IMG/VR virus record: IMGVR_UViG_3300018079_000002
Coordinates: 3,768-67,767 of that record
Strand: one strand, 5' to 3'
Source: a virus
Length of the DNA: 64,000 nucleotides
Of this stretch, positions 7,274 to 59,965 are shown piece by piece. The notes under the pieces were generated by a model. The model did no database searches. It had not been told where the DNA came from and saw only the letters and a program-made list of their open reading frames with translations. How positions within the stretch are numbered: the stretch's first letter is position 1; every line of letters starts with the position of its first letter. The position numbers were made by a program, and so were the translations under genes.

Positions 7274-7299
7274 CTCCAGCGTGTAGAGAAGGCACTCGG

Positions 7300-7704: not shown

Positions 7705-7721
7705 ATGTTTTTGTTTGGTGA

Positions 7722-9602: not shown

Positions 9603-9616
9603 ACAAGGTTTACTTT

Positions 9617-11148: not shown

Positions 11149-11150
11149 AT

Positions 11151-17877: not shown

Positions 17878-18174
17878 TCACTTTCTTGTTTCGTTTTGTG
17901 ACTCACTCACATTCAACGAACCAGGCTCACCCTGGTCTCGTCGTTTCTCAAGAATGGTTGGTTCCATATCCTGAGTAAAGCTTAATTTGATGCGATATTT
18001 CCTCTCACATACCACGCAAATCGGAATGCCACCCAGGCACTCTTCCTTATGGTAGATGCCCAGCAGGAAGGGGCGTGTCTGTGGGTGCCCACAGGTGGCG
18101 CAACGGACGATAGGCCCAGGGGTGGTTGGTGGGCTCCAGCGCAAACTTAAATCGACGAAGACCGTTATGGCCAT
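17878..18174 (-). CDS. Small zinc-finger protein
   Basis: CATC...CVVC motifs, 98 aa. Confidence 0.55.
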   Translation of the reverse strand: MAITVFVDLSLRWSPPTTPGPIVRCATCGHPQTRPFLLGIYHKEECLGGIPICVVCERKYRIKLSFTQDMEPTILEKRRDQGEPGSLNVSESQNETRK

Positions 18175-18785
18175 GGTCCTGCCTCGTTAGTTAGCGTGAT
18201 TATACCACGGAAGAAAGCAGCATCATTGGTGGTGGGCGGCACCAGCACCTGGTAGATGCGAAGCCAGTTCACGAAGTCCGTGCTCTGCTCGATTGCTACG
18301 AAAGTATTGGTCATGCCCGTCACCTGACTGATCTGCATTTCCATCTGCAACGGTGGTCGATTGGTGAACAGCGGTCCAGCCGGTTCACTTTCCAGGCCAG
18401 CCCAATTGTAGGCCGTGAGGGTAAAGTAATTCGTCACACCCCTGGGCACGATCATGCAGGCATTGCTGATGGCCGCACCCGGCAGGTCCACACGCTGTGT
18501 ATACATCCCACTTTCCACGCCTTGATAGAGGCGATAACCCGCCAGGTCCGGTTCGGAGTTAGTGCGCCACTGGAAGCAGATGCGGTAGGTGCCCTTCCAC
18601 ACATTGGACTGCGCGAATAAGTTTGACGCTGACAAGAAAAAGAAGAACCCTACTCGCAGCAGGTCACAGCGTGTAAGCCACCCCAGCCGTCGTCGATTAA
18701 GCTTGGGCGACACGTCCAACCCGGTAAGGCTGACATGCTCACTGGGCACCTTGTCCTGGTAACGAGTAGGGTGGTGAGATTTCAT
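18165..18785 (-). CDS. Secreted FN3 protein with C-terminal xSTDxxNW...FFR module
   Basis: Hydrophobic GFFFFLSASNLFAQ; FQWRTNSEPDLAGYRLYQGVESGMY; YFTLTAYNWAGLES; IEQSTDFVNWL...AAFFRG. Confidence 0.75.
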   Translation of the reverse strand: MKSHHPTRYQDKVPSEHVSLTGLDVSPKLNRRRLGWLTRCDLLRVGFFFFLSASNLFAQSNVWKGTYRICFQWRTNSEPDLAGYRLYQGVESGMYTQRVDLPGAAISNACMIVPRGVTNYFTLTAYNWAGLESEPAGPLFTNRPPLQMEMQISQVTGMTNTFVAIEQSTDFVNWLRIYQVLVPPTTNDAAFFRGIITLTNEAGPWP

Positions 18786-27680: not shown

Positions 27681-28769
27681 TTAGTCAGTAGGCGTGTTAT
27701 CGATCTTGAGCCGGTAGAACGCCTTGCTGTAGCGCGTTAAGTCCTCGAACTGCAGCTCCAGCCCTTCCGGCAGCTCGGTGCGCATCACCGTGGTCCAGGT
27801 CACTAGGTCGCGACTGCGCTGCACCAGCACCTTGCGGCTGGCCACCCCGTAATTCAGCCGCACGTTAGGCAGGCCGTTGGGTCTGGCCGGGTCCGGCTCA
27901 AAGCGTATGGGACAATCCTCCGGTGCACAGCGCCGTCCGTTCCTGGCAAAGGACTGGTAGCCACCCCAATAGAAGTCAATGCCGTGCCCGTTGATAATGC
28001 GGTTGAATTCTTCGCCATTGATCAGTGGCAATTCACCGTTGGTCCCCCTGGGCAGGAAGGCATTGTAGGTAATCACCGGCCTGCCGTTGCGATGGGTGCC
28101 ACGCAGGTGCCACAGCATCAGGTCCGCAGGCACCGTTGGTTGTTCGCCACTAAGCCACATGGGCTCCATCAGCATCATGGGGGACGAGGCAGTATCCGTT
28201 TCGTTCGTTTCCACGTCACAATCCTCGCCGCACTCTGGGTCTGAATCGGCTGGCCAGGTTTCCTCCCAGCAATACTCGATGCCACTACCCGAATACGAAG
28301 CAGCCGCATCGTCCGCATTGTTCAATGAGTATACCCCAAACCCAAACTCGTCCGGTGGTGCATTAGTGTTGGCCGGAGCAGGTGGAGTGGGGCCAAAGTT
28401 CTTCTGGCAGAACCGGACGATCTTACAACTGACCACCCCGCCCACTACGATGATCACAATGGCCACGATCAGTGGACCACTGCGCACTTCCGCCTTGGCT
28501 TTAGGTGGGGGTGTCAGTCCAATGCCCAGCAGGGAACAGGCCAGCACCAGCGCCACCAGCTTGTTGCGCGTATCCTTATGCAGAACGAACAACCACAGCA
28601 CCGCTATTGCCGAGAATAAGCCCCAGAAGTATCGGTGCACGGTGCCCGAGCTGGCCAGCACACAGAGCAGCGTCAGTGCCCAGGTGAATCCAATCGCCTT
28701 ATACGGGTGCATCCTGACCCATCCGTCGAATCGTTTTATTGCGTTCATGTTTTTCTTTTGGTTGACCAT
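27681..28769 (-). CDS. Membrane/secreted protein with C-terminal xSxDLxxW...FYR module
   Basis: Several hydrophobic segments in the N-terminal 120 aa, Pro/acidic linker, C-terminal VLVQRSRDLVTWTTV...SKAFYRLKI. Confidence 0.75.
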   Translation of the reverse strand: MVNQKKNMNAIKRFDGWVRMHPYKAIGFTWALTLLCVLASSGTVHRYFWGLFSAIAVLWLFVLHKDTRNKLVALVLACSLLGIGLTPPPKAKAEVRSGPLIVAIVIIVVGGVVSCKIVRFCQKNFGPTPPAPANTNAPPDEFGFGVYSLNNADDAAASYSGSGIEYCWEETWPADSDPECGEDCDVETNETDTASSPMMLMEPMWLSGEQPTVPADLMLWHLRGTHRNGRPVITYNAFLPRGTNGELPLINGEEFNRIINGHGIDFYWGGYQSFARNGRRCAPEDCPIRFEPDPARPNGLPNVRLNYGVASRKVLVQRSRDLVTWTTVMRTELPEGLELQFEDLTRYSKAFYRLKIDNTPTD

Positions 28770-29193
28770 CCATGAGTTTCTTTCCTCTCACCACGGCACG
28801 TTCAGTTCGTCCGGCCATGATAATTTTGATAATCATTCGCGAATCAACCTTGACGCACTGCTTGCGTATCTCCTGGAGCCGCAGCAACGGTATGTCGTAG
28901 TGGTCCCGGTCGAACCAGCCACGGTTGATGCCCAGCGCCTCGGCCATCTGGTGCAGGTTCTCCTTGGAGTAGGGAATGCACACCAGGTGCCGTTGCGCGT
29001 CGCAATAGTAAGTCAGCTCGATCTCCGGCAGCGTGCCTAGGTAGGCGACGAATTCTGCCACGTAGGTTTTGTCCGCAAACAGATGGCCTTCCACGTAACC
29101 CACCAGCCAGGCTTCGATGGTAGCCTTGGCGAACGCCAGCAGCCTTAGCTTTCTTCTTACTTCGTCTTTAGTTAAATAATTTGGCATAAGCAT
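28699..29193 (-). CDS. DUF4031-like protein
   Basis: HLVCIPYSKENLHQMAEALGINRGWFDRDHYDI. Confidence 0.6.
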   Translation of the reverse strand: MLMPNYLTKDEVRRKLRLLAFAKATIEAWLVGYVEGHLFADKTYVAEFVAYLGTLPEIELTYYCDAQRHLVCIPYSKENLHQMAEALGINRGWFDRDHYDIPLLRLQEIRKQCVKVDSRMIIKIIMAGRTERAVVRGKKLMDGQPKEKHERNKTIRRMGQDAPV

Positions 29194-38736: not shown

Positions 38737-39036
38737 CTAGGGCACACCACCCTTGATGCCCTGGATCAGCGCCTTGGTGGCTCCCTCGGTGATGGCCTTT
38801 ACCGAGTCGCTGTCCGGCTTGAGAGTTACACCCTCGGCATTGACGGTGCGAATAAATTCCATCGTCTGTGTCTCGGTTTTTAGCTTCGCGGCCTGACCGA
38901 ACATCAAGAACGTTTTGTGGCTCACGTCCACGATGTGATTCGTCCCTTGGGGTCCGTAGTAAGTAAACCGTTCGCGGTAGGTGCTGCATGCGGTCAGGGT
39001 TAGGCTAAGCATCAACAGAAGAAACATTTTGCTCAT
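38737..39036 (-). CDS. Lipoprotein
   Basis: MSKMFLLLMLSLTLTA-C lipobox. Confidence 0.75.
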   Translation of the reverse strand: MSKMFLLLMLSLTLTACSTYRERFTYYGPQGTNHIVDVSHKTFLMFGQAAKLKTETQTMEFIRTVNAEGVTLKPDSDSVKAITEGATKALIQGIKGGVP

Positions 39037-39379
39037 CGTCCAAGCTTAGGACCACGTAGCCGTCAGGCAAGCCGAAACCCTTGTCCATGACATAAAGCAC
39101 CCGGCGAAATAAATCGTCGCCATGTTTGGCATACTCGCCGTGCAGTGGTCCGCAGCCGCAACGTTCTCCCTCGCCACCACTATGACCCGCATGCGTGTAG
39201 TCGCGTCCGGTGCCATGGCAACGTTCGCACGGATAAAACTTCCGCAGGTGGAGTAAGTCACCCACCTGGAAGCCACGATCGTTTTTCCGGAATTCAAATC
39301 GCTTGTCACCGTCTTTGACAGCTTCGAATTGGTCCGGCCAACTTTTTAGTTCATGCACTTTCATATTATTCTTCTCCAC
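39005..39379 (-). CDS. DUF3850 / ASCH-PUA domain protein with inserted CxxCxGxG zinc motif
   Basis: VHELKSWPDQFEAVKDGDKRFEFRKNDRGFQVGDLLHL; GLPDGYVVLSL. Confidence 0.85.
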   Translation of the reverse strand: MEKNNMKVHELKSWPDQFEAVKDGDKRFEFRKNDRGFQVGDLLHLRKFYPCERCHGTGRDYTHAGHSGGEGERCGCGPLHGEYAKHGDDLFRRVLYVMDKGFGLPDGYVVLSLDDEQNVSSVDA

Positions 39380-39765
39380 TCGTTCATTATCTGAATAAAC
39401 TGCAGACGGTCTAGGGGCACCGCACCCAGCTTCAGTGCCTGACTCCGTTGTTCTGGCGACAAGTCGTAGTGCGGCACCGGGTGCGGATTGTGCGCCGAAC
39501 GTTCAATGTCCAGCTTCCTGGCCATGCGGTGAAGGATATCCAGGTGGCAGGTGCCAGGGTTGGTCAGCAAGTAACAACTCAGGCGTCCCGAGCTGGTGGT
39601 GCTGACCGGCTGGCACTCGTCCACGAAGACCGGGATGAAGGTAGGCGTGGTGCATTCACCCCGGTCGCACTGCGGGCAATGACCAATCACAATCACCGAG
39701 CCATCGTCCAGGAATTGAATCGCCTGGACTCGGTCGAGGATGGTCATACACGCCATGCAGTTCAT
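39361..39765 (-). CDS. DUF4031 protein with N-terminal zinc ribbon
   Basis: CMAC...CPQC; VFVDE, LHRMARKLDI, HYDLSPEQRSQALKLGAV. Confidence 0.75.
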   Translation of the reverse strand: MNCMACMTILDRVQAIQFLDDGSVIVIGHCPQCDRGECTTPTFIPVFVDECQPVSTTSSGRLSCYLLTNPGTCHLDILHRMARKLDIERSAHNPHPVPHYDLSPEQRSQALKLGAVPLDRLQFIQIMNEWRRII

Positions 39766-40007
39766 ACCGGTGTCCCGTCGCTGTAACCTTGATGAGTTAC
39801 CTTAGCGGTGTTTTCCTTCGTGCTGCAGTCCACGCAAATGTGTTCCCATTCCGTGCGGCATTGCGGATGTGGCCGCACCAGCCAACCGTTCTGTTTGATG
39901 ATGGCCACCACCTGGCGGAAGTCTGCTGCCTCCAGGTCTTCTTCGCTGTGGCTGCACCGGTCGCAGCTAACGTCCCACAACCCGCGCGATGTGCCTCGTT
40001 CGATCAT
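39762..40007 (-). CDS. Small zinc-finger protein
   Basis: CDRC...GW...HICVDC. Confidence 0.65.
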   Translation of the reverse strand: MIERGTSRGLWDVSCDRCSHSEEDLEAADFRQVVAIIKQNGWLVRPHPQCRTEWEHICVDCSTKENTAKVTHQGYSDGTPV

Positions 40008-40699
40008 TTTGAGTATGTCAGTCCTTGCAATTGACTATAGGCAATGCCTCGTTCGTGCATTGCTTTGCGCCACAGCGTCCAGTCCTCGTCAGGCAGTCCC
40101 TCTGGGCGAGTGGTCATTAGCTGGGCCAGGTTCGGCTCAAAGAAGTTTGGACCCTTACCCACCTTGCCACTGGGGAATTTAATTGGACGGCCGTCCTCAC
40201 CAAGCTTGGACATATTGCTGCGGTGCACTTCGGTATAACCGGCAAAGCGTAAGCTGCCAAAGCCCAGGGAACGCCAGGCCAGGTCCAGCTCGTTCTGGAC
40301 ACGGTTCAAACACGAAGGCAGCAGGTCCACCTGCCCGTCCGCCACGTGCTTGATGAACCGTGCGTGCTCCCGGTTCAACCCGGCCAGCAGGTTCAGATTG
40401 TTTTCCAGGTTGGTCATGCCAAGGACGGGTTTATCGACCAAACTGAATTCGCGTTTGGACTCCGGCATGCCGAAGGTGCGGTAAGTGCCGTCCACCACGT
40501 ATTGGCTGTCCACCAGCGCATCAAAGACCGCAATGGGGTCTTGTGCGGCCAGAGCAGCAGCGAGCTCGCTAAGTTCTCCGCCAATGAGTTGGATGCGGAC
40601 GAAGATGGTTTGGGCGTCCGGAATTCCGAGCCTCGACAGTTCTTTGATTTCATAGACACGATGGAATTCTCCATTCAGGTCGATCGTTTTGGTTTGCAT
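40004..40699 (-). CDS. MazG-like NTP pyrophosphohydrolase (PRA-PH/DR2231 type) with helical insertion
   Basis: From MQTKT; ELSEL...DALVDSQYVVDG and EVHRSNMSKLGEDGRPI..GKVGKGPNF. Confidence 0.85.
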   Translation of the reverse strand: MQTKTIDLNGEFHRVYEIKELSRLGIPDAQTIFVRIQLIGGELSELAAALAAQDPIAVFDALVDSQYVVDGTYRTFGMPESKREFSLVDKPVLGMTNLENNLNLLAGLNREHARFIKHVADGQVDLLPSCLNRVQNELDLAWRSLGFGSLRFAGYTEVHRSNMSKLGEDGRPIKFPSGKVGKGPNFFEPNLAQLMTTRPEGLPDEDWTLWRKAMHERGIAYSQLQGLTYSK

Positions 40700-40866
40700 A
40701 TTAGTTTGATGATGACGTATAGGCACCACAAGGGCCAGCTCAGCACCAAACAGATATGCCATCCTGGCCCTAAGTCGCGTCCTGCGGTTTTGAAGAAGGC
40801 ACGGGCACACACGTGCCCAAGCCATAGGTAAATTATCGCTGCAAGTGATTCGAGGAAGAAGTTCAT
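40675..40866 (-). CDS. Small two-TM membrane protein
   Basis: MNFFLESLAAIIYLWLG...ICLVLSWPLWCLYVII. Confidence 0.55.
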   Translation of the reverse strand: MNFFLESLAAIIYLWLGHVCARAFFKTAGRDLGPGWHICLVLSWPLWCLYVIIKLICKPKRST

Positions 40867-44038: not shown

Positions 44039-44396
44039 GTCCTTCGTTCCATGTTTTCAATGCTCTCGTCCTGAGAGCAAGGCGGGGTAACTTACCCACA
44101 TCATAAGCCTGCTCACCGGAAAACAGGAGCCACTCGGTCCTGACCTGGAGCAGAAGATAAACTTCACCGCCCACCCGCCAGCGATTGATGATCCAGATGC
44201 GCTGCTGCTGAGTGAAGTGCGGTATCATAACAATGTCATGCACGTGGTCCGGCCAGCGCCGTAGCCACTTCAGCTCCAGCCAACCCTCGGCATAGTTCAC
44301 GTCCGGGGTGCCTGGATAGGCCGGGTTCTCCACGGCAATCGCGTTTAGCGAACGCAACGCCTTGCAGACTCGACCGCGCATGCCATATTCACTCAT
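43863..44396 (-). CDS. PD-(D/E)xK nuclease, putative Holliday junction resolvase
   Basis: MSEYGMR...VENPAYPGTPDVNY..GWLELK...FTQQQRIW. Confidence 0.8.
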   Translation of the reverse strand: MSEYGMRGRVCKALRSLNAIAVENPAYPGTPDVNYAEGWLELKWLRRWPDHVHDIVMIPHFTQQQRIWIINRWRVGGEVYLLLQVRTEWLLFSGEQAYDVGKLPRLALRTRALKTWNEGLVDQELLDVLHHGRYGHNDTNKPGTAKSMATAQAVASATGGKTLPRNPTKVFPMGKRH

Positions 44397-44875
44397 GCTA
44401 TTGCTTCGTATTCAGTAACTTCAATCCCGGCCTTAGTCAAAAGTTCTCGCGAACGATCGTAAGAGTCCTTCGGGATGTTATTAGTCGCCACCGTGGCCAG
44501 GGTTACTACCCGGCCAATCCGTTTCTGAACTAAGTGCACGGCGCAACGGCAGCAGGGCAGCACCGGGTAAGTAAACAGTGTGTGACCGGAAACGTGCTCG
44601 TTGGCGAAAAAGACCGCATTCATTTCCGCATGAATGGTCAGCTCCAGGCGTAGCCTCGGGTCGTGGAGCACCACTGGGTCATCCGGCATATCCTGGGGCA
44701 AACCGTTGAAGCCAACGGACGCAATGGTCAGGTCGTGCCGCACAATGACCGCACCCACTTTGGTCGAAGGGTCTTTGGACCAAGTGGAAACTTCTCGCGC
44801 TAGTCGTAGGAAGCGCATGTCCCATTTGGTTTGCTTTGCAGTCATCGCTCGTTCCAATTCAAACATGTTAGACAT
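44393..44875 (-). CDS. dCMP deaminase
   Basis: WSKDPSTKVGAVI, GFNG, HAEMNA, PCCRC. Confidence 0.95.
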   Translation of the reverse strand: MSNMFELERAMTAKQTKWDMRFLRLAREVSTWSKDPSTKVGAVIVRHDLTIASVGFNGLPQDMPDDPVVLHDPRLRLELTIHAEMNAVFFANEHVSGHTLFTYPVLPCCRCAVHLVQKRIGRVVTLATVATNNIPKDSYDRSRELLTKAGIEVTEYEAIA

Positions 44876-46815: not shown

Positions 46816-47163
46816 TTAGGCAGCGTGTAACATACGGAAGAAAGTCCACCGGTCCACCGGGTGGCGTTGTGCTTCCTGGCGCATTTGCATCAGCGTGGTG
46901 CGCCGTTCCTGGAGTTTGGCTTTGCCCTTGTCCGGGTCTTGGCCAAGCAACTCCGTGTAGTCAGTGAGGATGCGGCCATTGTCGTGGCCAATCAACACAC
47001 CGGTAGTGGCGTCAAACACGAAGTGCTGGCCACTCGGTGACGTGACGTTCAGCACGGCCAGCCCCTCACATAGCTCCGTGTGCCGGTCGTATTCGAGCTC
47101 GGTGCTGATCAGTCCGACGTGCACGCATGGGTTGGTAAGTGCAGCCCAGATTGTGGTCTTCAT
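46816..47163 (-). CDS. Hypothetical protein
   Basis: 115 aa, in operon. Confidence 0.6.
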   Translation of the reverse strand: MKTTIWAALTNPCVHVGLISTELEYDRHTELCEGLAVLNVTSPSGQHFVFDATTGVLIGHDNGRILTDYTELLGQDPDKGKAKLQERRTTLMQMRQEAQRHPVDRWTFFRMLHAA

Positions 47164-47648
47164 TTATTGTCTCTGTGGTTGTTAGCTTGGACCACTCCGC
47201 GAGCACGCATTTCAGCCTCGACAAGAAGCAGGTAGCGACGAAGATCGCGAACGTCGTCCAAAAGTCCTTCGGGTCGCTGGTCGGCAGCCAGACCAGCGAA
47301 GATATCCCAGGCAGGCACCGTCACTCCGGCCCACCGGCTCATTGGTGCCAGTGCCGCTTTCTGTTCTGCGTTGCAGGCTGCATAGTCACTCGGCCACTTA
47401 GCTGGGTCGAGCGCAACTTCCATGCGGTCGAACTTACGGCAGAATTGCATGAAGGCACCAGCGCCTCCACGTGACTTCCAGCTATCACCGTAGGAGACTG
47501 CGGCCTTCTTCAGACCAGCCGAGTCTTCTTTGATGATACCGGCGATTGCCTCAAAAAGGATGATCTTATCCTCTTGAGTTATGCCATCCAGGTATTCCAG
47601 GAAGGCGAATGTTGCTGCTTTATCTGTCATTGGGGCACTCCAGTCCAT
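47160..47648 (-). CDS. Nucleotide-modification-associated domain 1 protein (DUF1599/Nmad1, MazG-like fold)
   Basis: SYGDSWKSRGGAGAFMQFCRKFDR...LLDDVRDLRRYLLLVEAE. Confidence 0.75.
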   Translation of the reverse strand: MDWSAPMTDKAATFAFLEYLDGITQEDKIILFEAIAGIIKEDSAGLKKAAVSYGDSWKSRGGAGAFMQFCRKFDRMEVALDPAKWPSDYAACNAEQKAALAPMSRWAGVTVPAWDIFAGLAADQRPEGLLDDVRDLRRYLLLVEAEMRARGVVQANNHRDNK

Positions 47649-48091
47649 TGGTCTTTACCGAATTTTTGATCCATGTATTCTCTCCAGTGCACCCATCCTC
47701 CGAGTGTATGGAAACCCCATGAACGTTGCTTGCGACCAATAAACACCAACGTCCATGCTGGTATAAATTTACCCCATTCGTCCGTGCGCAGCTCCACCCG
47801 ATGAATGTCCGTGGCCTTGTGCCGCAGGACACTTCCAGGTCCGCACCAGCGCCGACGGTCAGTAAGTGGCGGGTGGTCCGTTAGGTATTCCCAATAGCCA
47901 CCGCGCAGGATGAACGTGGTAAAGTTCCACGGATGATCGTGCATGTCATCACGATCGTTCCGGTGAATGTTATGTAGGTAAATGCCGAACCAACGTGATC
48001 TCAGCACGAAGTAACGGGTCAGGTAAGGCGAACCGTCTTGGTCGGCAATCGTGAATGGCCGGAGCCACTTGAGTAATAGTTTCTTGATCAT
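47627..48091 (-). CDS. Cupin-fold metalloprotein
   Basis: IYLHNIHRNDRDDMHDHPWNFTTFILRGGYWE...HRVEL...WTLVFIG. Confidence 0.75.
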   Translation of the reverse strand: MIKKLLLKWLRPFTIADQDGSPYLTRYFVLRSRWFGIYLHNIHRNDRDDMHDHPWNFTTFILRGGYWEYLTDHPPLTDRRRWCGPGSVLRHKATDIHRVELRTDEWGKFIPAWTLVFIGRKQRSWGFHTLGGWVHWREYMDQKFGKDQWTGVPQ

Positions 48092-48696
48092 ACTTCGGGT
48101 GTTCTGGTGTGTTCAAAGTGCGTCATAAAGTCATAGACGCTGTTGGGCAACGGGTCCACTTGCTTCTCGAACCAGCCGTTGACCATACCTAGGGCACCAA
48201 GAATATTACGGTTGCCGAGCGCAAGCTGGTCATGGCACCACAACCAGAATTCCAGGCGGTCAATCACGTCCAGCCACCAAGCATCGTCCTGACTTAGGAT
48301 AGGTATTTGGATAGCTTTCTTCTTAGTCACCACTGCCTCAGCGGCACGATACTCGATGCCTAACTGGTCGTTGAACCACTTAGCTGGAGCCGGCAAATCG
48401 CCTAACCAGCGTTCGGGTACGTCATGCAGTATCAAGGCCAGGATCAACTCCCGGCTGGCGTCTGGCTTGAGCACCAGCAGCAGCGTTAGGGCGTCCGCCA
48501 CGTGCTTGCCTACCGTGTATTCACCGACGTGCGGCAGGGTGTGGCAGCGCCTCGTGTTGTTGCACTCGCGAAACATCAGCACCCGGTGCACCAGCCGTTC
48601 CGGTGCCATGTCCGGATGTCTGGCCACCGATGCATCTTCGCGCACCGTCTTGAAGGGATGAAATGGTCCATCGTATATCGTCTTAGGCTTATCCAT
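48088..48696 (-). CDS. HD-domain 5'-deoxynucleotidase (YfbR-like)
   Basis: RRCHT...TVGKH...LHDVPERWLGDLPAPAK...D(R)LE. Confidence 0.88.
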   Translation of the reverse strand: MDKPKTIYDGPFHPFKTVREDASVARHPDMAPERLVHRVLMFRECNNTRRCHTLPHVGEYTVGKHVADALTLLLVLKPDASRELILALILHDVPERWLGDLPAPAKWFNDQLGIEYRAAEAVVTKKKAIQIPILSQDDAWWLDVIDRLEFWLWCHDQLALGNRNILGALGMVNGWFEKQVDPLPNSVYDFMTHFEHTRTPEV

Positions 48697-49729
48697 GCTG
48701 CACCCCGTCATCCATGACTTTTTCAAACTTCGCTTTCCTGCGAAGTAACCATTCGTTGCCTGCGCGTTGCCAGTCCGGTGCTTCGCATGCAGTCAACGCC
48801 TCCAGGGCAGCGCCGTAACGTTCTCCACCTTCCGTCTCCTTGAAACGACGATAGGCGTTGCACATCGGCGCCACCACCTTGCGGAAGAACTTGGTCTTCA
48901 GGCCGGGTGGTGTGCCCAGTTCCATAAATGCCTGCAGGTCCGCTTCCCAGTGCTCGATCAATTCCCCTGGGCTTAGTAACGGCTGGTAATTGGTCGTGCC
49001 TTGTTGGTAAGGGTCGTTGTTGGCAACTTTCTGATACGGCATATTGCCCAGGGAGAACAACGGCTCGGCGGTGGCCAGGTAGCCGTGCATGTTGTTACTG
49101 AACTGGTAGTATGGCCCCATTTCGCAGCCGATCAGCATGGCCAGGTATTCTTGCAGCACACTGAAGTGGACTGCGTTCGCACCGAGCGCACCCCAAACCA
49201 GGTCGTTGCTGCGATTGCAAACTGTCATAGTCAGACGGCCTGCCGTGTCGCGCAGGAAGTAGGCATGTGTATTGCAGGGCAGGTCTTTGCTTTGCAGCCC
49301 CAGGTCGTGGAAACCATCCCACATAGCCAGCACCTGCCGACGGCAGTCCGGATTGTTCTTGAGTGCTAGCGCAATCGGGTAGAGCTGGTCCTTGCCGAAG
49401 TGCTTGCGCCAGCGAAACCCGTAGGCCGCGTTGAAGGTCTGGCCGTCATCCGAGAAGTCCGCCATGCGCTTAACATAGGCAGCGACGAAGGCTACGTCAT
49501 TTCTCCCGGCCAGCATCCACAGGGACTCGACCAGATGGAAGAACGGATTGCAGTCGCGCTCCGGCCAGAACATTACCCGTTCCCAGGGACGTTCGTATTG
49601 CACGATCACCGGTGCCGGGAACACCAGCACTGGTCCATTTCGGCTTTCGCGTTTGACTCCATGTTGCTGGAGTTGATTCATTGCGCAGGGCAACACCTGG
49701 TGCACGTTCCGTGCCTGTATTCCATACAT
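48689..49729 (-). CDS. dUMP hydroxymethylase (thymidylate synthase superfamily)
   Basis: ESRNGPV, RDCNPFFHLVESLWMLAGRND, catalytic DLPCN, RSND..WGALGAN (Asn indicating dUMP specificity). Confidence 0.88.
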   Translation of the reverse strand: MYGIQARNVHQVLPCAMNQLQQHGVKRESRNGPVLVFPAPVIVQYERPWERVMFWPERDCNPFFHLVESLWMLAGRNDVAFVAAYVKRMADFSDDGQTFNAAYGFRWRKHFGKDQLYPIALALKNNPDCRRQVLAMWDGFHDLGLQSKDLPCNTHAYFLRDTAGRLTMTVCNRSNDLVWGALGANAVHFSVLQEYLAMLIGCEMGPYYQFSNNMHGYLATAEPLFSLGNMPYQKVANNDPYQQGTTNYQPLLSPGELIEHWEADLQAFMELGTPPGLKTKFFRKVVAPMCNAYRRFKETEGGERYGAALEALTACEAPDWQRAGNEWLLRRKAKFEKVMDDGVQHG

Positions 49730-49735
49730 AGGCTA

Positions 49736-50626
49736 TTACTTGGTTGAGCGGAAGAGTTGTTTCGGTCTTCCCTGACCGAGCCGAGCACGTTCGTATTTGT
49801 CGAATTCGCAGAGCGTGTGCTCGACTTCACGCATCTCCCATAGGGGCCATTGATCGCACCAATACTTGGGGTGGCGCGAATATTCTAAAAGGTTCATCAT
49901 GCCCAGGGCGAGCACGAGTTGATCTTCGTCTGAGTGGTAATTGAAGTGACCGATCTCGCCGTATACAACCCGGCTTAGGCCACGGGCAGCGCCTGGACCG
50001 GCGGACGCCCATTCGTTGATGTCCGTGGCCTGCTCCAGCACCCGTGTGTGGCGTAAGTCAGTGACAATTTCGTAAGCCATGAAGTTACCCACATAGGGAA
50101 ACTCGCGCAGCAGTTCCCAGGCATAGCGTAAGGTATTCGCCTTACCCATCTTGAACCATAACTCCTTGTAGCAGTCACGTATGGGTGCAAGGATTTCGGC
50201 GATACCTTCAAACTTCGTTTTACCGGCTGGTGTCTTAAGCATGTAGGCCGAAGTTACAATGGGTGGCTCCAGCTTGGCCACCTGTGCACGGCAGCGCGTC
50301 GTGTCCCAGCCCTTCTCCAGGAGGATATGTGCCATTGCCTCCAGGGTTGAAATGCGATTGAAGAAACGGCAGGCACACATGGCAATGACAACCTTGGGGT
50401 CATGCTTCAAGGGCTTGCGGATGTTCTTCTTGATCCACCGCGTGGTGGTGTCGTCCTCGCGGAAGACGTTGCAAAAGCGATACGTCTGGAGTATCGGGTC
50501 CGTGGTCCAGGATGAGGCAGGCGTCTTGGCTTCGGTGCGCATCAGATAAATCGCGTAGCGCGTTGATGCGTAACCAAAGAACGGAGCCAGCCCCACCCAC
50601 TCTTTGGTGGGCGGTAGCTCTTTCAT
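49736..50626 (-). CDS. 5-hmdU DNA kinase helical-domain protein (formerly aGPT-Pplase1)
   Basis: DPILQTYRFCNVFREDDTTTRWI, GNFMAYEIVTDL, GPGAARGL, EVEHTLCEFDKYER. Confidence 0.88.
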   Translation of the reverse strand: MKELPPTKEWVGLAPFFGYASTRYAIYLMRTEAKTPASSWTTDPILQTYRFCNVFREDDTTTRWIKKNIRKPLKHDPKVVIAMCACRFFNRISTLEAMAHILLEKGWDTTRCRAQVAKLEPPIVTSAYMLKTPAGKTKFEGIAEILAPIRDCYKELWFKMGKANTLRYAWELLREFPYVGNFMAYEIVTDLRHTRVLEQATDINEWASAGPGAARGLSRVVYGEIGHFNYHSDEDQLVLALGMMNLLEYSRHPKYWCDQWPLWEMREVEHTLCEFDKYERARLGQGRPKQLFRSTK

Positions 50627-51180
50627 GCCAACCCCAGCATTTCTTCTATGAGGTCAGCAGCCTGCTGACGGTTGCAACGGAAGACCTGGACCGGTTTACC
50701 CGGCAGCTCCTCGAACCGTTGCGCCGCACGTTTGGCTTGGCTGTGCTTGGCGGTGGTGTTCTTGGTTGGCACCGGCTCCATTTCGCCTCGCGCCTGACGG
50801 CGTGCATTGACACCGGCGAGGCAGGTTTCGATTGTTTCCTCGATGAATACCACCCGGCAGTCAGGCAGCTCCTTGGTGCGATTGATCTCGTTTGTCAGCA
50901 GCAGCCCCTCGAACAGCACGTTGCGTCCGAGTGCTATCTGTTCCTGGATAAGTTGATACGTTGTATCAATCTTAGTGATGGTATCACAACCACCGCACGG
51001 TGACTCATAGTGTCCCAGGACGGCCAGCTCTGGCGTCCCTTCACCATTGCGCATGATGTAATACAAAGGCTGCTTGCGGTCTTCCACTCGCACCGGCTCC
51101 TTGTTGGAGTAGAGACTCATAATGTGACGAACAAGGAATGACTTACCTGAGCCACTTGTTCCACGAATATTGATGATCAT
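50623..51180 (-). CDS. P-loop nucleotide kinase of 5-hmdU DNA kinase type
   Basis: IINIRGTSGSGKS, LGHYESPCGGCDTI, VLFEGLL; adjacent to the helical-domain gene. Confidence 0.85.
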   Translation of the reverse strand: MIINIRGTSGSGKSFLVRHIMSLYSNKEPVRVEDRKQPLYYIMRNGEGTPELAVLGHYESPCGGCDTITKIDTTYQLIQEQIALGRNVLFEGLLLTNEINRTKELPDCRVVFIEETIETCLAGVNARRQARGEMEPVPTKNTTAKHSQAKRAAQRFEELPGKPVQVFRCNRQQAADLIEEMLGLA

Positions 51181-51264
51181 AGACTGCTTTGCTCAAACCG
51201 ACGTTGACTGCTCACTAGACTGGTTTACCCGCCATCCGTGCGGACCAGCTATCTGAATGTTGTC

Positions 51265-51292
51265 ATTTTCGCTGACGCACGTAAAAAGGCAA
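51265..51292 (-). promoter_or_regulatory. Putative sigma70-type promoter of kinase/hydroxymethylase operon
   Basis: TTGCCT-TTTTAC..N16-GAAAAT. Confidence 0.5.
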
Positions 51293-51334
51293 CGATAAGT
51301 TACTAAAGGTTATTAACGTGTTATGCACCGGTTA

Positions 51335-51514
51335 TTAACTTTCCAGGCCCACGGCCTTTAGGGCACGCTGGGCAATCATTTCAAACTCGGCCATGGAGAG
51401 GCGCTGGGTGGAGCCGGTTAAGTTGTTAACCACCAGCGCGTAGTCCTCCGGCGGACGGATAATGAAGGTTGATTCCTTCGAACGAAGAACCATTTCCACA
51501 AATTCGCCTTTCAT
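51335..51514 (-). CDS. Small hypothetical protein (59 aa)
   Basis: Manual translation MKGEFVEMVLRSKESTFIIRPPEDYALVVNNLTGSTQRLSMAEFEMIAQRALKAVGLES; ATGA overlap. Confidence 0.6.
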   Translation of the reverse strand: MKGEFVEMVLRSKESTFIIRPPEDYALVVNNLTGSTQRLSMAEFEMIAQRALKAVGLES

Positions 51515-51723
51515 ATCATTGGCCCACTCTTAAGTTGATCAACGTAGGCCGCATTGGTGCGGCCAGTTGCCCTGCAGGAACGGCACTGCACTGCTGAGAA
51601 GTCAGAAGACTTGACGCGATAACCATCGAAAGCCGAACAACGGGCATTACGTTGCACCACTACCCAGTTGCGCTCGGCCACCGGCTTCTTACGTTCCGGA
51701 CAATGACAGTTGAACCAATGCAT
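51511..51723 (-). CDS. Small Cys-rich conserved phage protein
   Basis: WVVVQRNARCSAFDGY..SSDFSAVQCRSC..RTNAAYV. Confidence 0.65.
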   Translation of the reverse strand: MHWFNCHCPERKKPVAERNWVVVQRNARCSAFDGYRVKSSDFSAVQCRSCRATGRTNAAYVDQLKSGPMI

Positions 51724-52448
51724 TACCGTGCGAGCTGTTCGGTGCGATAAAAGTTGCCACTGTTGGTGCTAATCCTGGGGCCAACCCAGCGATGCTCGTA
51801 ATTGGTGGTAATGGTTTCGGCTTTGCGGGTCCAGGTGTCCTCCAGGCGCATCTTGCTGTCGATACCATAGCGCAGGTTCGGCATACCACGCATGATCACC
51901 ACGTCCTGGCGGTCAGTCACTGAGTGCCCGTTCTGCTGGAATACGAAAATACGGTGCTGCATTTCCAGCAATGGCCCATCAAAGCGATAACCGAACACGG
52001 CCAACTCCCCGATCTCCAGATTAGTCGGATACTTAACCTGGATACGAATAAACTTCGCTGGCCGTCGCACCTGGAGCACCTGCGGAAAGTTGACCCACTG
52101 CTGGAAGCGATAGCTAAAGGTGGTCACGTCCGGGTCAAAGGCGACATTGGTGGTGGCGCTATTGAACGGCAGGTTGGAGACAAACACGAAGAAGTTGGTG
52201 GGCGCATTGCTCGCCCTGGGCAACACTTCCAGGTGATTGATCCAATTGGTTTGGGCGAATGACAACTCCAGCCACGGGGTGTCCTCAAAGCCACTGACCG
52301 CAAACGTATTCGTGTTTCCATCGATGGCATTCGAGGCTGGCAGCACCTGTGACGACTGTGACGCGGACGCGCCTCTGGTGACGTTCGAATTCTGCGCATG
52401 AATAACGCCTGTTAGGAGCAGGCCCATTAGTATGATTATTCTTTTCAT
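51723..52448 (-). CDS. Secreted F5/8-type C (discoidin/fucolectin-like) protein with C-terminal FYR module
   Basis: Signal peptide MKRIIILMGLLLTGVIHA; ASQSS...ASNAIDGNTNT...PWLELSF...AKFIRIQ...LEIGELAVFG; ends SGNFYRTEQ. Confidence 0.85.
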   Translation of the reverse strand: MKRIIILMGLLLTGVIHAQNSNVTRGASASQSSQVLPASNAIDGNTNTFAVSGFEDTPWLELSFAQTNWINHLEVLPRASNAPTNFFVFVSNLPFNSATTNVAFDPDVTTFSYRFQQWVNFPQVLQVRRPAKFIRIQVKYPTNLEIGELAVFGYRFDGPLLEMQHRIFVFQQNGHSVTDRQDVVIMRGMPNLRYGIDSKMRLEDTWTRKAETITTNYEHRWVGPRISTNSGNFYRTEQLAR

Positions 52449-53320
52449 GGTTTTGGTTTATCTTTCATTTTAAATTCGGCGCAAACTTGTGCGGCGCACC
52501 AGCCATACACCACCAGGCCGTTCTTACCACCACCGTTGACGTGCCAAATGTTCGGATGGTCTTCTCCGCAATAGCCAAACTCGTGGTGCTCGACGATAGG
52601 CCGGTAGCCGATCATCATCTTCTTTACCCGCATGTCACCCACATGTTGACGCGCATGGCGCAGGGTCAGCGCCTGGACTTCCTGGGCACGTTTCTCGTAT
52701 TCATCAATCAGCAGCGCCACGGTGTCCGCGTAATAGACCGTGTCCTCGTCATACTGGTAAAGCTTCTCGTGACGGTAAGGTGCCCACATGCCAAGTCTGC
52801 TCTGCCCAGGAGCGAGGCGTCCTTCAAAAAGGTAGCAGTGGCCAATTCGTGCCCACACCTTGAGGCTGGACCCATGGCCGTAAAGGCCGATGGGTGCGAG
52901 CTCTGGTGCACGATACCCGGCACAGATGATGGTGGGGCCATCGAAGGTCTTCATTGTGCCCTTGCCGGACAGCAGCACCCGCACGCCTTCACCGGTGAGC
53001 TGTTCGACTTTACCAACCACGTCCGGTTTGACCAGCACAGCCTGGACCGGGATTTGTTTGACCTTTGGCGCGTCCTTAATTCCAGAGGCGAACGGGTGGA
53101 CGATCTTAGGTCCATACAGCTCCTGGAGCAGGCGAAAGCCGGTGTCCACCTTGCCACGGTCGAACCGAGTCACCCAGGACGGGGTGAACAGGTTGTCGCT
53201 GGGTGGCGAACCGGCTTTCTTGTCTGCATCGTCAATGACACGCACCTTGAACCCTTCACGGCGCAGGTGCGTGGAAACAATTGAACCGGCGAGACCGGCT
53301 CCAATTACGTTGATCATCAT
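52445..53320 (-). CDS. FAD-dependent oxidoreductase/lyase (DAO/glycine-oxidase-like; PaMx11 gp47-like role inferred)
   Basis: Rossmann VIGAGLAGS; ICAGY; C-terminal GYRP...NGGGKNG; coupled to the amino acid:DNA transferase. Confidence 0.8.
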   Translation of the reverse strand: MMINVIGAGLAGSIVSTHLRREGFKVRVIDDADKKAGSPPSDNLFTPSWVTRFDRGKVDTGFRLLQELYGPKIVHPFASGIKDAPKVKQIPVQAVLVKPDVVGKVEQLTGEGVRVLLSGKGTMKTFDGPTIICAGYRAPELAPIGLYGHGSSLKVWARIGHCYLFEGRLAPGQSRLGMWAPYRHEKLYQYDEDTVYYADTVALLIDEYEKRAQEVQALTLRHARQHVGDMRVKKMMIGYRPIVEHHEFGYCGEDHPNIWHVNGGGKNGLVVYGWCAAQVCAEFKMKDKPKP

Positions 53321-54183
53321 ATGTGTTTCGGCATGTGCTTAAGAAACATCTTTGCCTCGTCCAGTGCCTTGGTCCAAGGCTCCAACCCGGCAGTGATTTC
53401 GTCGATGTCGTTGTAAATGGGGTAGTGACCGTTCATGTGGCTCTTCCACTTGCAAAGAATCGTTTCGATCTCCTGCAAGCCCAGGGGACGGTGGTCGTCC
53501 GGCGGTGCCTTGAAGTCTGCGAAGACACCCTGTAGGTGTTTGACCACCCCGGAAATAATCTCCACGTGTGCGGCCTTATCCTTTGGCCTGGCGTCTTCGG
53601 GCAAGCCCTTCTTCGCTCGCCAGAGCATCAGTGCGGCCTTGGTTGGATCAGTGAACATGAAGACGGCTGCTTCGCTGAAGTCTACCGGCACCTTGAACAC
53701 TCGCTCCGTCATGTCAGCCACCTTGAACGCAATCCAGGGTCCGAACAGCATGTGTTCCTGGACACGGTTGGCCACGGCGGTAAAGTCGCCACCCTCGCCA
53801 ATCACGTAATCCACGAACGCTTCCGGCTGCGGATACTTCGTGCGCAGCTCCTTGACCGCCTTGATGGCCGCATTGCCGCGAAAATGCCGCCGTTCATGAC
53901 CGCGTTCCCACCGAGTGCCAAGTGGCGTCTCGGTTTTGTTCTCCGCAGCCATGTGCATGATATCCCAAAAGCTTTTACCGTCTTTGGTGGAGGCAATATA
54001 GCAGGATGGCCCTGCTGCATAGTAACACCAATACGCCACGAGCCAACGCTTGACCCATTTAATCTTGCGAGGGTCTTTGAGGATACCGCACAGCGCGATA
54101 TAAATGGGGTCAAGATCGTTGGTTTCAAGGAGACGCCTGCCGAATTTTTCAATCGGCAGGCGTTCATAGTTTCGTCCGGCCAT
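53317..54183 (-). CDS. Amino acid:DNA transferase (formerly aGPT-Pplase2)
   Basis: DLDPIY, RWLVAYWCYY, RGHERRHFRG, FGPWIAFKVADM, QEIETILCKWKSH. Confidence 0.9.
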   Translation of the reverse strand: MAGRNYERLPIEKFGRRLLETNDLDPIYIALCGILKDPRKIKWVKRWLVAYWCYYAAGPSCYIASTKDGKSFWDIMHMAAENKTETPLGTRWERGHERRHFRGNAAIKAVKELRTKYPQPEAFVDYVIGEGGDFTAVANRVQEHMLFGPWIAFKVADMTERVFKVPVDFSEAAVFMFTDPTKAALMLWRAKKGLPEDARPKDKAAHVEIISGVVKHLQGVFADFKAPPDDHRPLGLQEIETILCKWKSHMNGHYPIYNDIDEITAGLEPWTKALDEAKMFLKHMPKHI

Positions 54184-54211: not shown

Positions 54212-54763
54212 TTAGGCTTTGACGATTTTGATCACACCATCCTTCTCAGTCAGGCCGTAACCAAGATGGGTGTTGAGCAGCCGGGTGCCTTCGTAGGCGG
54301 TGCGGTGGTCCCAGCCGGTCTTCTTCATGATCTGCTCGAAGGTGGCACCCTTGCCGGTCAGCAGCTTGATGACCGTATCGCGTTTGGTGCCTTCCCGGTG
54401 TGCCTTGATGTTCTTGCGAGGCTTGAAGTCAAAGGGCTTGCGCGCACGCGGTTTGCGTTCGCCGTTGGACTTCTTTGCGGCCTTGACCTTCTTGACCTTG
54501 GCAGGCTTGCGGGTTTTCGTCGCACGAGTGCGTGCAGGCTTGGTGCTGCTGATGTCCTTCGTCTCAATGATGTAGGCTTCAAAGTCCACCGGCTTTTCGC
54601 CCTGTGCTTTGAATGCCTCCACCGCCTTGGCGACGGCAGCAGCACGGTCACGGATTTTGGAAACCGTGGAGCCAGTGATTAGTCCGAGAAACCTTCCCAG
54701 GTTGACGCCTTGCAGCGCCTCGATGTCCTTGGCCGTTTTGATTGTCATGTTTTCGATTTGCAT
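54212..54763 (-). CDS. Basic DNA-binding protein (Lys/Ala-rich linker + C-terminal winged HTH)
   Basis: KPAKVKKVKAAKK; REGTKRDTVIKLL..GATFEQIMKKTGW. Confidence 0.7.
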   Translation of the reverse strand: MQIENMTIKTAKDIEALQGVNLGRFLGLITGSTVSKIRDRAAAVAKAVEAFKAQGEKPVDFEAYIIETKDISSTKPARTRATKTRKPAKVKKVKAAKKSNGERKPRARKPFDFKPRKNIKAHREGTKRDTVIKLLTGKGATFEQIMKKTGWDHRTAYEGTRLLNTHLGYGLTEKDGVIKIVKA

Positions 54764-54905: not shown

Positions 54906-56660
54906 CTATTCGCAGCTCCTGCGTCCAGTGGCCGCATCAATCTCGCAGGCTGCACCTTCCTCGCTCGCCACCGGCTGGGGCTTTGACTCCAGCACGCCAG
55001 CACGTTTGCCACCAACCTGGTAGGTGGTGCAACCTTTGCACCCAGCTTCCCAAGCCTGGAAATATAGCGCCTGGAAGTCTGGCCACGGTGTCGTGCTGGG
55101 CACGTTGCAAGTCTTGCTGACGGCGCTGTCCACCCATTTGTATGCCTCCGATAACACCGCAAGATGTTCTTGCACCGTCACGTCCGCCGAACGTTTACCC
55201 TGGACCTGGAACACCCGCCAGCCGTAGTCCACCACGTTGTGCTTCACCGGCTGATTGCCAAACTCAATCACCGTGCGCTCAAATTCGTAATCGAAGACCG
55301 GTTCAATGCCGGACGAAACGTTGTCCGCACAAAGACTAATGGTGCCGGTGGGAGCGATGCTGAGCAGGTGACTGTTGCGTATGCCGTGTTCGTGAATCAG
55401 TGCCACCACTTCCGGGTCCAGGTGCGTCAGGAATTTACTTTCCAGGTAACGATCATCGAACAACGGGAACTCGCCTTTCTCCTTTGCCAGTTCAACACTG
55501 GCACGGTAGCAACCGTTGGCCAATAACTGCAGGATGCGGCCCATTTGTTTAACGAACTGCGGCGTGCCATACGCATACCCCTGGGCTTCGAGTGTATTGG
55601 CCAACCCGGTGACTCCTAAACCCATGCGCCGTTTATTCTTCGCCTCCTTCTCCTGTTCATACAACGGATAGACGGCCTTGTCCACCACATTGTCCATGGC
55701 ACGCACCACGTGTGGAATGTCCGCCAAGAATCGCTTGTCATCAAAGGCGTAACCATTGTCGCCCAGCACCAAGTATTTGACCAGGTTGAAACTGCCCAGG
55801 AGGCAGGCACCGAAGGGTGGCAGTGGCTGCTCGGCGCACGGATTGGTGGCAGCAATCTTTTCGCAGTATTGCAGGTTGTTCATTTCGTTGATGCGGTCGA
55901 TGAAGATCACTCCCGGCTCGGCCCAGTCCCAGGTCGAGCGCATAATCATTTCCCAGAGCGCGAACGCATCCACTTCGCGGTAAACTTCTTTGCCAAAACG
56001 AAGCTGGAAAGTTTTCTTCGCCCTAACGGCCTGCATGAATTCGTCCGTAATGGCGATGCTCAAATTGAATCCGGTCAACTCGGTGGAGTTGTGTTTGGCG
56101 CGAATAAAGTCCTCGATGTCCGGGTGGTCCACCCGCAGGATGCCCATTTGTGCGCCACGACGATGGCCAGCACTGGCAATGCACCGGCAACCCGCGTCGT
56201 AAACATGCATAAACGAAAGTGGGCCACTGCTGCGTGACTGAAGCTTTCTGATCAGAGCACCTTTCGGACGCAGCGTGCTGAAGTCGTAACCAATGCCACC
56301 GCCCATCCGCAGGGTCAGCAGTGCTTCCGAGAAACGGTTGACGATGCTGCCGGTGCCGTCCACCAACGAGTCCTCGATGGTGCCACTGACGAAACAGTTG
56401 TAAGGGGTCACGCGCTTGGTGCTGCCGATCGCAGACTGGATTCGACCTGCAGGCATAAAGCGCATGTCAAACAGCATTTCGCGAAACGTATGGAAGTGTG
56501 CGTCTCCGTCCGCGAGGGTTGAGGCAATCCGGTTTGCCGCCTCGCGAAAAGTTTCCCCTTCGCTGCGATACTTTTGCGCATGCAGGTGTTGGGAGAAAGG
56601 TTGCGTTGGTCCTACTTGCATTCTCATAGATCGATTTGCTTCAATGTGGTGTTCGTTCAT
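54906..56660 (-). CDS. nrdJ: Class II (adenosylcobalamin-dependent) ribonucleotide reductase
   Basis: PAGRI, NCFV, GGGIGYDFS, TNPCAEQPL..CLLGSFNL, IAPTGTIS, KGCTTY; no small subunit in window. Confidence 0.92.
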   Translation of the reverse strand: MNEHHIEANRSMRMQVGPTQPFSQHLHAQKYRSEGETFREAANRIASTLADGDAHFHTFREMLFDMRFMPAGRIQSAIGSTKRVTPYNCFVSGTIEDSLVDGTGSIVNRFSEALLTLRMGGGIGYDFSTLRPKGALIRKLQSRSSGPLSFMHVYDAGCRCIASAGHRRGAQMGILRVDHPDIEDFIRAKHNSTELTGFNLSIAITDEFMQAVRAKKTFQLRFGKEVYREVDAFALWEMIMRSTWDWAEPGVIFIDRINEMNNLQYCEKIAATNPCAEQPLPPFGACLLGSFNLVKYLVLGDNGYAFDDKRFLADIPHVVRAMDNVVDKAVYPLYEQEKEAKNKRRMGLGVTGLANTLEAQGYAYGTPQFVKQMGRILQLLANGCYRASVELAKEKGEFPLFDDRYLESKFLTHLDPEVVALIHEHGIRNSHLLSIAPTGTISLCADNVSSGIEPVFDYEFERTVIEFGNQPVKHNVVDYGWRVFQVQGKRSADVTVQEHLAVLSEAYKWVDSAVSKTCNVPSTTPWPDFQALYFQAWEAGCKGCTTYQVGGKRAGVLESKPQPVASEEGAACEIDAATGRRSCE

Positions 56661-59612: not shown

Positions 59613-59771
59613 TTATACACTTTTGAACCTTTCGAGCTCCCGTGTGGCGATATCCCAGCCACTTAGCCAACCCTGTGCGCCGTCCGAGCCATCCGGGTAG
59701 GGGCACTCGGTGCGGTCCACCCCTTGCATGGCGTCCTCATACCCCTCCTGGGCAAACGGGTCACTGATCAC
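59613..59771 (-). CDS. Ribosome modulation factor (RMF)-like small protein
   Basis: GTG start overlapping upstream stop; AQEGYEDAMQGVDRTECPYPDGSDGAQGWLSGW matches the RMF G(Y/F)..G..G....CPY.....WL.GW pattern. Confidence 0.6.
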   Translation of the reverse strand: MISDPFAQEGYEDAMQGVDRTECPYPDGSDGAQGWLSGWDIATRELERFKSV

Positions 59772-59965
59772 AGCAGCCACTCCCGCAGGCGCGTCTCGGC
59801 TTCCTGCTCGTTGACCCAGCCTTGTAAGGGAGTTGCGCTGCGCACCCGTGCCCACTCCAGTGCCCATTCGTTTCCCATCTGGAGCTGAATGCTTTTACGT
59901 GCCGAGTCACCGGCCAGGAATTGAGCCAGTGCCTTAATGAACAAACCTTTTTCTTGTGTGGTCAT
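59768..59965 (-). CDS. Hypothetical protein
   Basis: 65 aa from MTTQEK. Confidence 0.55.
   Translation of the reverse strand: MTTQEKGLFIKALAQFLAGDSARKSIQLQMGNEWALEWARVRSATPLQGWVNEQEAETRLREWLL

Follow-up and report, generated by a model that had tools for sequence, protein, structure and literature searches.

What base does a phage place in its DNA when it carries the genes for the early steps of a thymidine hypermodification pathway and the gene for the last step is missing? The question is raised by a gene cluster at positions 48689-54183 of a 64,000-nucleotide stretch of viral DNA (hereafter the window, to which all coordinates of this phage refer), which corresponds to bases 3768-67767 of the 69,987-bp virus record IMGVR_UViG_3300018079_000002. 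The record has direct terminal repeats and is rated as 100% complete by CheckV, and its nearest cultured relatives are phages of the PaMx11 group. Lee et al. (2021; PMC8989533) described the pathway by which PaMx11 makes 5-AcNmdU, and structures from this pathway have been reported as well (8z2m/8z2o; PMC11472151). The last enzyme in PaMx11 is an acetyltransferase of the GNAT family, gp48, and an earlier reading of the letters of the window alone (the original prediction), whose description of how PaMx11 and M6 modify their DNA is in line with the published work (PMC8989533, PMC11472151), noted that no such gene could be recognised in the window. It proposed three outcomes, namely DNA with free 5-aminomethyl-2′-deoxyuridine (5-NmdU), a different amino-acid adduct, or a base finished by a non-homologous enzyme. 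Here, we find that the GNAT is missing from the complete genome, and we lean towards the first of these outcomes. The genes that concern us are as follows, from upstream to downstream:

54212-54763, minus strand: DUF3489 protein similar to PaMx11 gp45 (PF11994, E 5e-7; 45% identity over 86 amino acids)
53317-54183, minus strand: predicted amino acid:DNA transferase (clade-2 aGPT-Pplase/AADT; ADDT) (PF18724, E 3e-25)
52445-53320, minus strand: DAO-type FAD enzyme similar to NGTO/gp47 (PF01266, E 6e-9; PF13450)
51723-52448, minus strand: 241-amino-acid signal-peptide protein bearing an F5/8-type-C (discoidin) domain
51511-51723, minus strand: 70-amino-acid cysteine-rich small phage protein
51335-51514, minus strand: 59-amino-acid orphan open reading frame (ORF)
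50623-51180, minus strand: P-loop 5-hydroxymethyl-deoxyuridine (5-hmdU) DNA kinase, similar to gp49 (N-terminal Walker A; phrog_800, E 2e-17; 45% identity to gp49 over 186 amino acids)
49736-50626, minus strand: 5-hmdU DNA kinase helical-domain protein (HMUDK_hel), similar to gp50 (PF18723, E 1e-41; 50% identity to PaMx11 gp50)
48689-49729, minus strand: dUMP hydroxymethylase-like protein of the thymidylate-synthase fold, similar to gp51 (PF00303, E 4e-16; phrog_5131, E 3e-120; 53% identity to gp51)
48088-48726, minus strand: HD-domain 5′-deoxynucleotidase, similar to gp52 (PF12917, E 2e-5, just below the cut-off; phrog_6047, E 4e-43; 43% identity to gp52)
44393-44875, minus strand: dCMP deaminase, which supplies dUMP (PF00383, E 2e-17; 36% identity to PaMx11 gp56)
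40004-40825: MazG-like pyrophosphohydrolase (supported)

All of the cluster genes that had been claimed for 48689-54183 are present on the minus strand, as judged by Pfam, PHROG and identities to PaMx11, and their order and orientation are those of gp45 to gp52 of PaMx11, except at the position of gp48. The transferase is 46% identical to its PaMx11 counterpart (the corresponding values for the two kinase proteins, the hydroxymethylase and the nucleotidase are listed above), and catalytic and ligand residues are conserved. In PaMx11, the 140-amino-acid gp48 lies between the oxidase and the kinase; it has no counterpart here, and three unrelated genes stand in its place, as had been observed in the original prediction, which described a secreted lectin gene and two small ORFs in this interval. 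The gp45-like DUF3489 gene is a conserved upstream neighbour of the transferase and has the same position in two of the uncultured relatives discussed below (L005 and L006). The supporting genes that had been named fared unevenly: the dCMP deaminase and the HD nucleotidase were confirmed and the MazG-like protein was supported, but the proposed Nmad1 is left unconfirmed, as its family appeared in none of the Pfam scans that we ran. That the protein at 48689-49729 would act as a hydroxymethylase rather than as a methylase is suggested by its orthology to gp51 only.

The absence of GNAT, pyridoxal-phosphate (PLP) and radical-SAM genes that had been claimed for the window extends to the complete genome. 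The gp48 protein has no match in its six frames, and the same is true for the families PF00583, PF13508 and PF13673, for all of which the control genomes give matches. A profile hidden Markov model that we built from six phage GNATs recognises the enzymes of six relatives left out of the model with E-values of 1e-44 to 1e-59 and two distant GNAT fusions with E-values of 0.009-0.07; its best match in the six frames of the complete genome has an E-value of 1.7 and lies on the non-coding strand. A search for a remnant of the gene in the 154-bp gap upstream of the kinase gene, in the two small ORFs and in the remaining six-frame sequence gave nothing above noise. Radical-SAM (PF04055) and PALP/PLP (PF00291) domains, both of which match in the controls, are also missing from the complete genome, as are MnmC-type and class-I methyltransferases (PF05430, PF13649), and Pfam scans of about 90 ORFs found no acyltransferase and no alternative tailoring enzyme. 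A GNAT elsewhere in the genome had been named beforehand as the finding that would speak against an unusual base, and the search of the whole record found none. As the genome is complete, the lack of this final enzyme stands on firm ground.

With these genes, the following route can be proposed. The dCMP deaminase, the HD nucleotidase, the MazG-like hydrolase and the dUMP hydroxymethylase would bias the nucleotide pool, so that 5-hmdU would be incorporated in place of T at replication, and the two-part 5-hmdU DNA kinase would then phosphorylate 5-hmdU in the DNA to give 5-PmdU. Through the active-site cysteine of the transferase, the phosphate would be displaced by glycine, giving N-alpha-glycinylthymidine, and the FAD oxidase would oxidise the N-C-alpha bond, so that glyoxylate leaves and 5-NmdU is formed. 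In PaMx11 and in almost all of the relatives, the GNAT acetylates this product, whereas here, with the GNAT gene replaced by a cassette of accessory genes, the route would end one step early. Given that the searches for an acetyltransferase, a methyltransferase, a PLP enzyme and a radical-SAM enzyme all came back empty, a free amine is the predicted end product, and we consider it somewhat more probable than not that the virion DNA carries free, cationic 5-aminomethyl-dU at the modified positions.

The transferase allows for a prediction of the amino acid that is used. It is 52% identical to the enzyme of YuA/M6 and 46-49% identical to the PaMx11-type enzymes, and it matches the PDB entries 25qc (E 7e-95) and 8z2m, a glycinyltransferase (E 4e-81). 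According to a 2026 structure paper on YuA, the glycine pocket of YuA Pplase2 consists of D24, E96, K159, K248, Y257 and D262. In our alignment, all six residues and the catalytic Cys247 are conserved in the transferase studied here, while the putrescine and diaminopropane transferases deviate at K248, Y257 and W146. As the glycine pocket is conserved, unlike in the polyamine transferases, glycine is the likely donor, and 53317-54183 can be described as a predicted glycine:5-PmdU-DNA transferase. A different amino-acid adduct, the second of the outcomes that had been proposed, is thus unlikely; free 5-aminomethyl-dU is the best supported of the three, and for the non-homologous finishing enzyme no candidate emerged.

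The oxidase is a member of a subfamily known from metagenomes, with about 20 proteins that are 39-81% identical to it. A profile of this subfamily has PaMx11 gp47 (8z2o/8z79) as its sole full-length relative in the PDB (E 9e-25). The AlphaFold (AF2) model of the oxidase (pLDDT 86.8, pTM 0.87) has its best matches in the same entries, 8z79 and 8z2o, with template-modelling (TM) scores of 0.77-0.81 and an E-value of 1e-21 from end to end, and its fold matches to glycine oxidases and to MnmC fall behind these by nine orders of magnitude. We therefore regard 52445-53320 as a predicted homologue of the FAD-dependent N-alpha-glycinylthymidine oxidase/lyase.

What, then, are the three genes that stand where the GNAT would be expected? 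The first encodes a protein with a Sec-type signal peptide, made up of a basic N-region, a 13-residue hydrophobic core and the cleavage site IHA|Q, followed by a discoidin domain at about residues 20-155 (PF00754 with 26.5 bits and PF22633 with 27.1 bits, both just below the cut-off). In the ESM Atlas, it reaches a feature score of 0.95-0.96 and structural TM scores of 0.54-0.57 to the discoidin modules of glycosidases. A word-index search returned only the protein itself and an exhaustive HMMER search was needed, which gave 96 matches at E<=1e-10, mostly repeats in secreted proteins of 1000-3800 amino acids. One full-length homologue of 245 amino acids (P0026) lies amid small accessory genes on a phage-like contig of 153 kb, where genes for a transferase, an oxidase or a kinase are missing within 14.7 kb. 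The GC content at the third codon positions of the discoidin gene of this phage (GC3 0.70) is typical of its genome, which indicates that the gene did not arrive recently. Homologues of the 70-amino-acid protein (33-59% identity by tblastn) are present in 26 phage records, whose hosts include Stenotrophomonas, Xanthomonas, Vibrio, Serratia, Caulobacter and Streptomyces; with the exception of one Stenotrophomonas record, these host genera are absent among the phages that carry a transferase. The 59-amino-acid ORF has no match in Pfam, PHROG or a tblastn search of phages.

One could imagine a base-tailoring role for the discoidin protein or for the two small ORFs, as new factors that functionally stand in for the GNAT. 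They occupy exactly the position that it has in the relatives, and they are tightly joined to the pathway genes: the discoidin start overlaps the stop of the FAD gene (ATGA), both the start and the stop of the 70-amino-acid ORF overlap the adjoining genes, and the start of the 59-amino-acid ORF overlaps the preceding stop (ATGA), all of which suggests translational coupling. The signal peptide of the discoidin protein, however, is cleavable and is kept both in the closest relative of this phage (L009, described below) and in P0026, so the protein leaves the cytoplasm; its domain is a carbohydrate-binding module that is repeated in giant secreted proteins, and a protein that is exported and binds carbohydrates cannot act on replicating DNA. 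The contig of its full-length homologue, which lacks nearby pathway enzymes, and the host range of the 70-amino-acid family also speak against a role in tailoring, and we find the idea very hard to believe. The replacement cassette may instead consist of accessory genes that act on the host envelope, and we would guess that they perhaps serve in superinfection exclusion. As a separate observation, the discoidin protein and those encoded at 18165-18785 and 27681-28769 (minus strand) are signal-peptide or membrane proteins with a similar C-terminal tail, in which a conserved W is followed, close to the terminus, by F-[FY]-R; this tail recurs in P0026, and most of the Atlas neighbours come from Verrucomicrobiota.

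Uncultured relatives indicate how this arrangement arose. Single-protein scans of viral contigs with the oxidase or the discoidin protein gave none, and it took an alignment of the oxidase subfamily to find them. The gene context was readable for 17 relatives (L005-L007, L009-L012, L018-L024 and L027-L029), and 15 of them have a GNAT of the gp48 family beside or near the oxidase, mostly directly after it. If L009 is set aside, the oxidases of the remaining 16 loci are 36-49% identical to the one studied here, their transferases 36-50% and their ribonucleotide reductases 52-60%, and they share the layout of transferase, oxidase, kinase, helical partner and hydroxymethylase. They differ from this phage in that all of them except L021 have a GNAT, either adjoining the oxidase or as a fusion with the oxidase or kinase, and in that none has the discoidin gene. 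In L020, oxidase and GNAT form one open frame (6893-8260), and GNAT-kinase fusions are encoded by L029 (8915-10849, 644 amino acids) and L007 (8806-11604, 932 amino acids). L029 had been considered as a case without a GNAT and was rejected, since its GNAT is fused to its kinase. Such fusions with the oxidase or the kinase show that the GNAT is functionally tied to the pathway.

The two relatives in which no GNAT was seen are of different kinds. L021 is a 19.6-kb fragment from marine sediment, in which the kinase directly follows the oxidase. Its cluster (5803-11236) is arranged as transferase, GIY-YIG, oxidase, kinase, helical partner, 171-amino-acid protein, HNH and hydroxymethylase, with two homing-endonuclease genes inserted. 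L009, the closest relative, is a 1.6-kb contig (1-1597) that was matched to 52100-53800 of the window and encodes the C-terminus of the transferase (97% identical), the oxidase (81%) and, of the discoidin protein, the N-terminal 97 residues (60%), with the same overlap at the junction of oxidase and discoidin. Between the window and L009, the ratio of nonsynonymous to synonymous divergence (dN/dS) is 0.03 for the transferase, 0.12 for the oxidase and 0.18 for the discoidin protein, and the synonymous divergence itself (dS) is about 0.6, 1.0 and 1.7, respectively. The conservation in L009 together with the dN/dS of 0.18 indicates that the discoidin ORF is a real gene under selection, and the value of 0.12 for the oxidase indicates purifying selection over a long divergence that post-dates the replacement, so that the pathway without a GNAT is stable and not decaying. 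The amino-acid identity falls steeply along these 1.6 kb, from 97 to 81 to 60%, which could reflect a recombination mosaic or a very different constraint on the three genes.

In a midpoint-rooted tree of the oxidases, the pair of window and L009 branches separately from L021. Both branches lie within the metagenomic subfamily, the remaining members of which bear a GNAT, and the sister clade of this subfamily consists of the PaMx11-type enzymes, which are GNAT-bearing as well. Because the tips without a GNAT are nested among GNAT-bearing oxidases, the absence is a derived loss, and judging from the tree it probably happened twice, once in the lineage of the window and L009 and once in that of L021.

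Several points nevertheless weigh against free 5-NmdU as the end product. The first is that the sequences establish the gene identities, the synteny, the conserved catalytic and ligand residues, the lack of a GNAT and its derived character, but that every enzymatic activity, and the final base itself, is deduced from orthology. The oxidase in particular is only 28-29% identical to gp47, the one characterised enzyme, and it departs from gp47 at Q182 (His) and Y244 (Ile). If it had drifted to another role or become inefficient, the DNA would carry mainly N-alpha-glycinylthymidine, 5-hmdU or a mixture, and what is left after the loss of the GNAT would in effect be a system for Gly-T or hmU; an insertion of 7 residues ahead of the DNA-wedge motif and the lack of conservation of K48, K202 and R210, which contact the DNA backbone in gp47, could be taken in the same sense. 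We judge this improbable. The residues of the base cage (W51 and K268), of the DNA wedge (P179-Y180) and of the proposed carboxylate contact (R242) are all conserved, and the fold matches that of NGTO from end to end. Moreover, the same substitutions are present in members of the subfamily that are still paired with a GNAT or fused to it: His occupies position 182 in the whole subfamily, including all of the GNAT-linked members, and position 244 has Ile or Phe, which means that this phage is not alone in these changes. The low dN/dS of the oxidase likewise indicates that its function has been maintained.

Another point against a free amine is that about 40 ORFs of the genome have no recognisable family, and a non-homologous finishing enzyme could be among them; the exposed amine could also be a substrate of an acetyltransferase or methyltransferase of the host. 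In either case, 5-aminomethyl-dU would be converted to 5-AcNmdU or to some other derivative, much as the nm5U of tRNA is usually processed onward by MnmC2 (PMC8989533). Within the block of nucleotide-metabolism genes, two ORFs, at 47627-48091 and 46816-47163 (115 amino acids), have no counterpart in the GNAT-bearing relatives that were compared. The former, on the minus strand, encodes a 154-amino-acid cupin-fold protein of phrog_4786, which is annotated as “cysteine dioxygenase”, and we considered it as a finishing enzyme. This now seems unlikely, as the family is common in phages of Mycobacterium, Gordonia, Burkholderia and Xylella, hosts that are absent among the transferase-carrying phages, and as some members in the Atlas are fused to NUDIX; its position is roughly that at which the relatives have a NUDIX gene. 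The distribution and the fusions of the family point to work on the nucleotide pool. More generally, the six-frame searches found no acyl- or methyltransferase fold, and the GNAT of the relatives is encoded by the phages and even fused to pathway enzymes, from which it appears that the hosts do not supply the acetylation. A finishing enzyme of the host or one without a known family thus seems to us an unlikely explanation, albeit one that deserves more weight than a weakened or repurposed oxidase. A last point concerns L009, whose contig is too short to establish that a GNAT is absent across its phage.

The free amine at the end of this truncated route can be compared with three known systems. 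With respect to PaMx11, this phage differs not only in lacking gp48 but also in having an oxidase of another subfamily and a ribonucleotide reductase that is a single large protein. With M6/YuA, which make 5-NedU, it shares the kinase, the hydroxymethylase and a transferase with an identical glycine pocket, and 5-NedU is a cationic primary amine on C5, as is the end product predicted here; those phages, however, rely on a PLP decarboxylase together with a radical-SAM isomerase, and the genome studied here was found to have neither. The third system is MnmC, which modifies bacterial tRNA (cmnm5U to nm5U to mnm5U). It also uses an FAD domain to remove the carbon skeleton of glycine oxidatively and leaves an aminomethyl group on C5 of uracil, but its substrate is RNA and it carries a fused SAM-dependent methyltransferase, and no methyltransferase was found here.

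Other features of the genome can be noted briefly. Nearly all genes of the window run on the minus strand. The cluster has a single sizeable non-coding stretch, the AT-richer gap upstream of the kinase gene (51181-51334, GC 0.46), in which a consensus scan found no sigma-70-like promoter and no terminator; no obvious Shine-Dalgarno sequence precedes either the kinase gene or the discoidin gene. The ribonucleotide reductase at 54906-56660 (minus strand) has 584 amino acids and is 26% identical to PaMx11 NrdA. A homologue of NrdB was not seen by tblastn, and the single protein thus belongs to a class of reductase different from that of PaMx11. At 59613-59867 (minus strand), an 84-amino-acid ORF matches the ribosome modulation factor (PF04957, E 1.2e-6; 28.9 bits, with the cut-off at 27.9), and a protein of this kind would be unusual in a phage. 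Two DUF4031 paralogues lie at 28699-29193 and 39361-39765 (minus strand), the latter next to a DUF3850/ASCH protein at 39005-39379, and in L007 and L008 a DUF4031 gene is also found near the hypermodification cluster. Two freshwater-sediment metagenome DNA runs contain the region and may be its source; among the listed runs that contain it, there is no RNA run.

How new would such a base be? The original prediction spoke of a possible novel end-product base, and in this it went too far with respect to the compound, which has already been characterised as the product of gp47. In the papers that were searched, 5-NmdU is described only as this product and as an intermediate. Lee et al. had moreover noted that such clusters occur in combinatorial variants in metagenomes, some of them with flavin oxidoreductases (PMC8989533), and for both reasons our reading should strike a specialist as plausible rather than startling. 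A preprint on END nucleases (PMC12191111) contains nothing relevant on escape through the loss of acetylation. What may be new is the proposal that 5-aminomethyl-2′-deoxyuridine, hitherto an intermediate known in vitro, is the natural terminal base of a phage lineage, with the acetyl cap lost at least twice independently (in the window and L009, and in L021). We advance this wider proposal tentatively, with slightly more doubt than belief. It has in its favour a complete genome, a clean and tested absence of the GNAT, evidence that the loss occurred more than once and a simple prediction for mass spectrometry, namely a nucleoside of 257 u for 5-NmdU as opposed to 299 u for 5-AcNmdU, which is already known from the work on PaMx11. 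On the practical side, a three-enzyme route (kinase, transferase and oxidase) to a primary amine on DNA could serve for enzymatic DNA labelling.

If the proposal is true, this would be the first natural DNA known with 5-aminomethyl-uracil as a finished base, and it would add to the short list of cationic thymine replacements, which includes putrescinyl-T, 5-NedU, 5-NeOmdU and dapT. It would also mean that thymidine hypermodification pathways diversify by truncation, in addition to the gain of tailoring enzymes, and the repeated loss of the acetylation step would suggest that selection favours the free cationic amine in some hosts, for example as an escape from nucleases that depend on a given modification.

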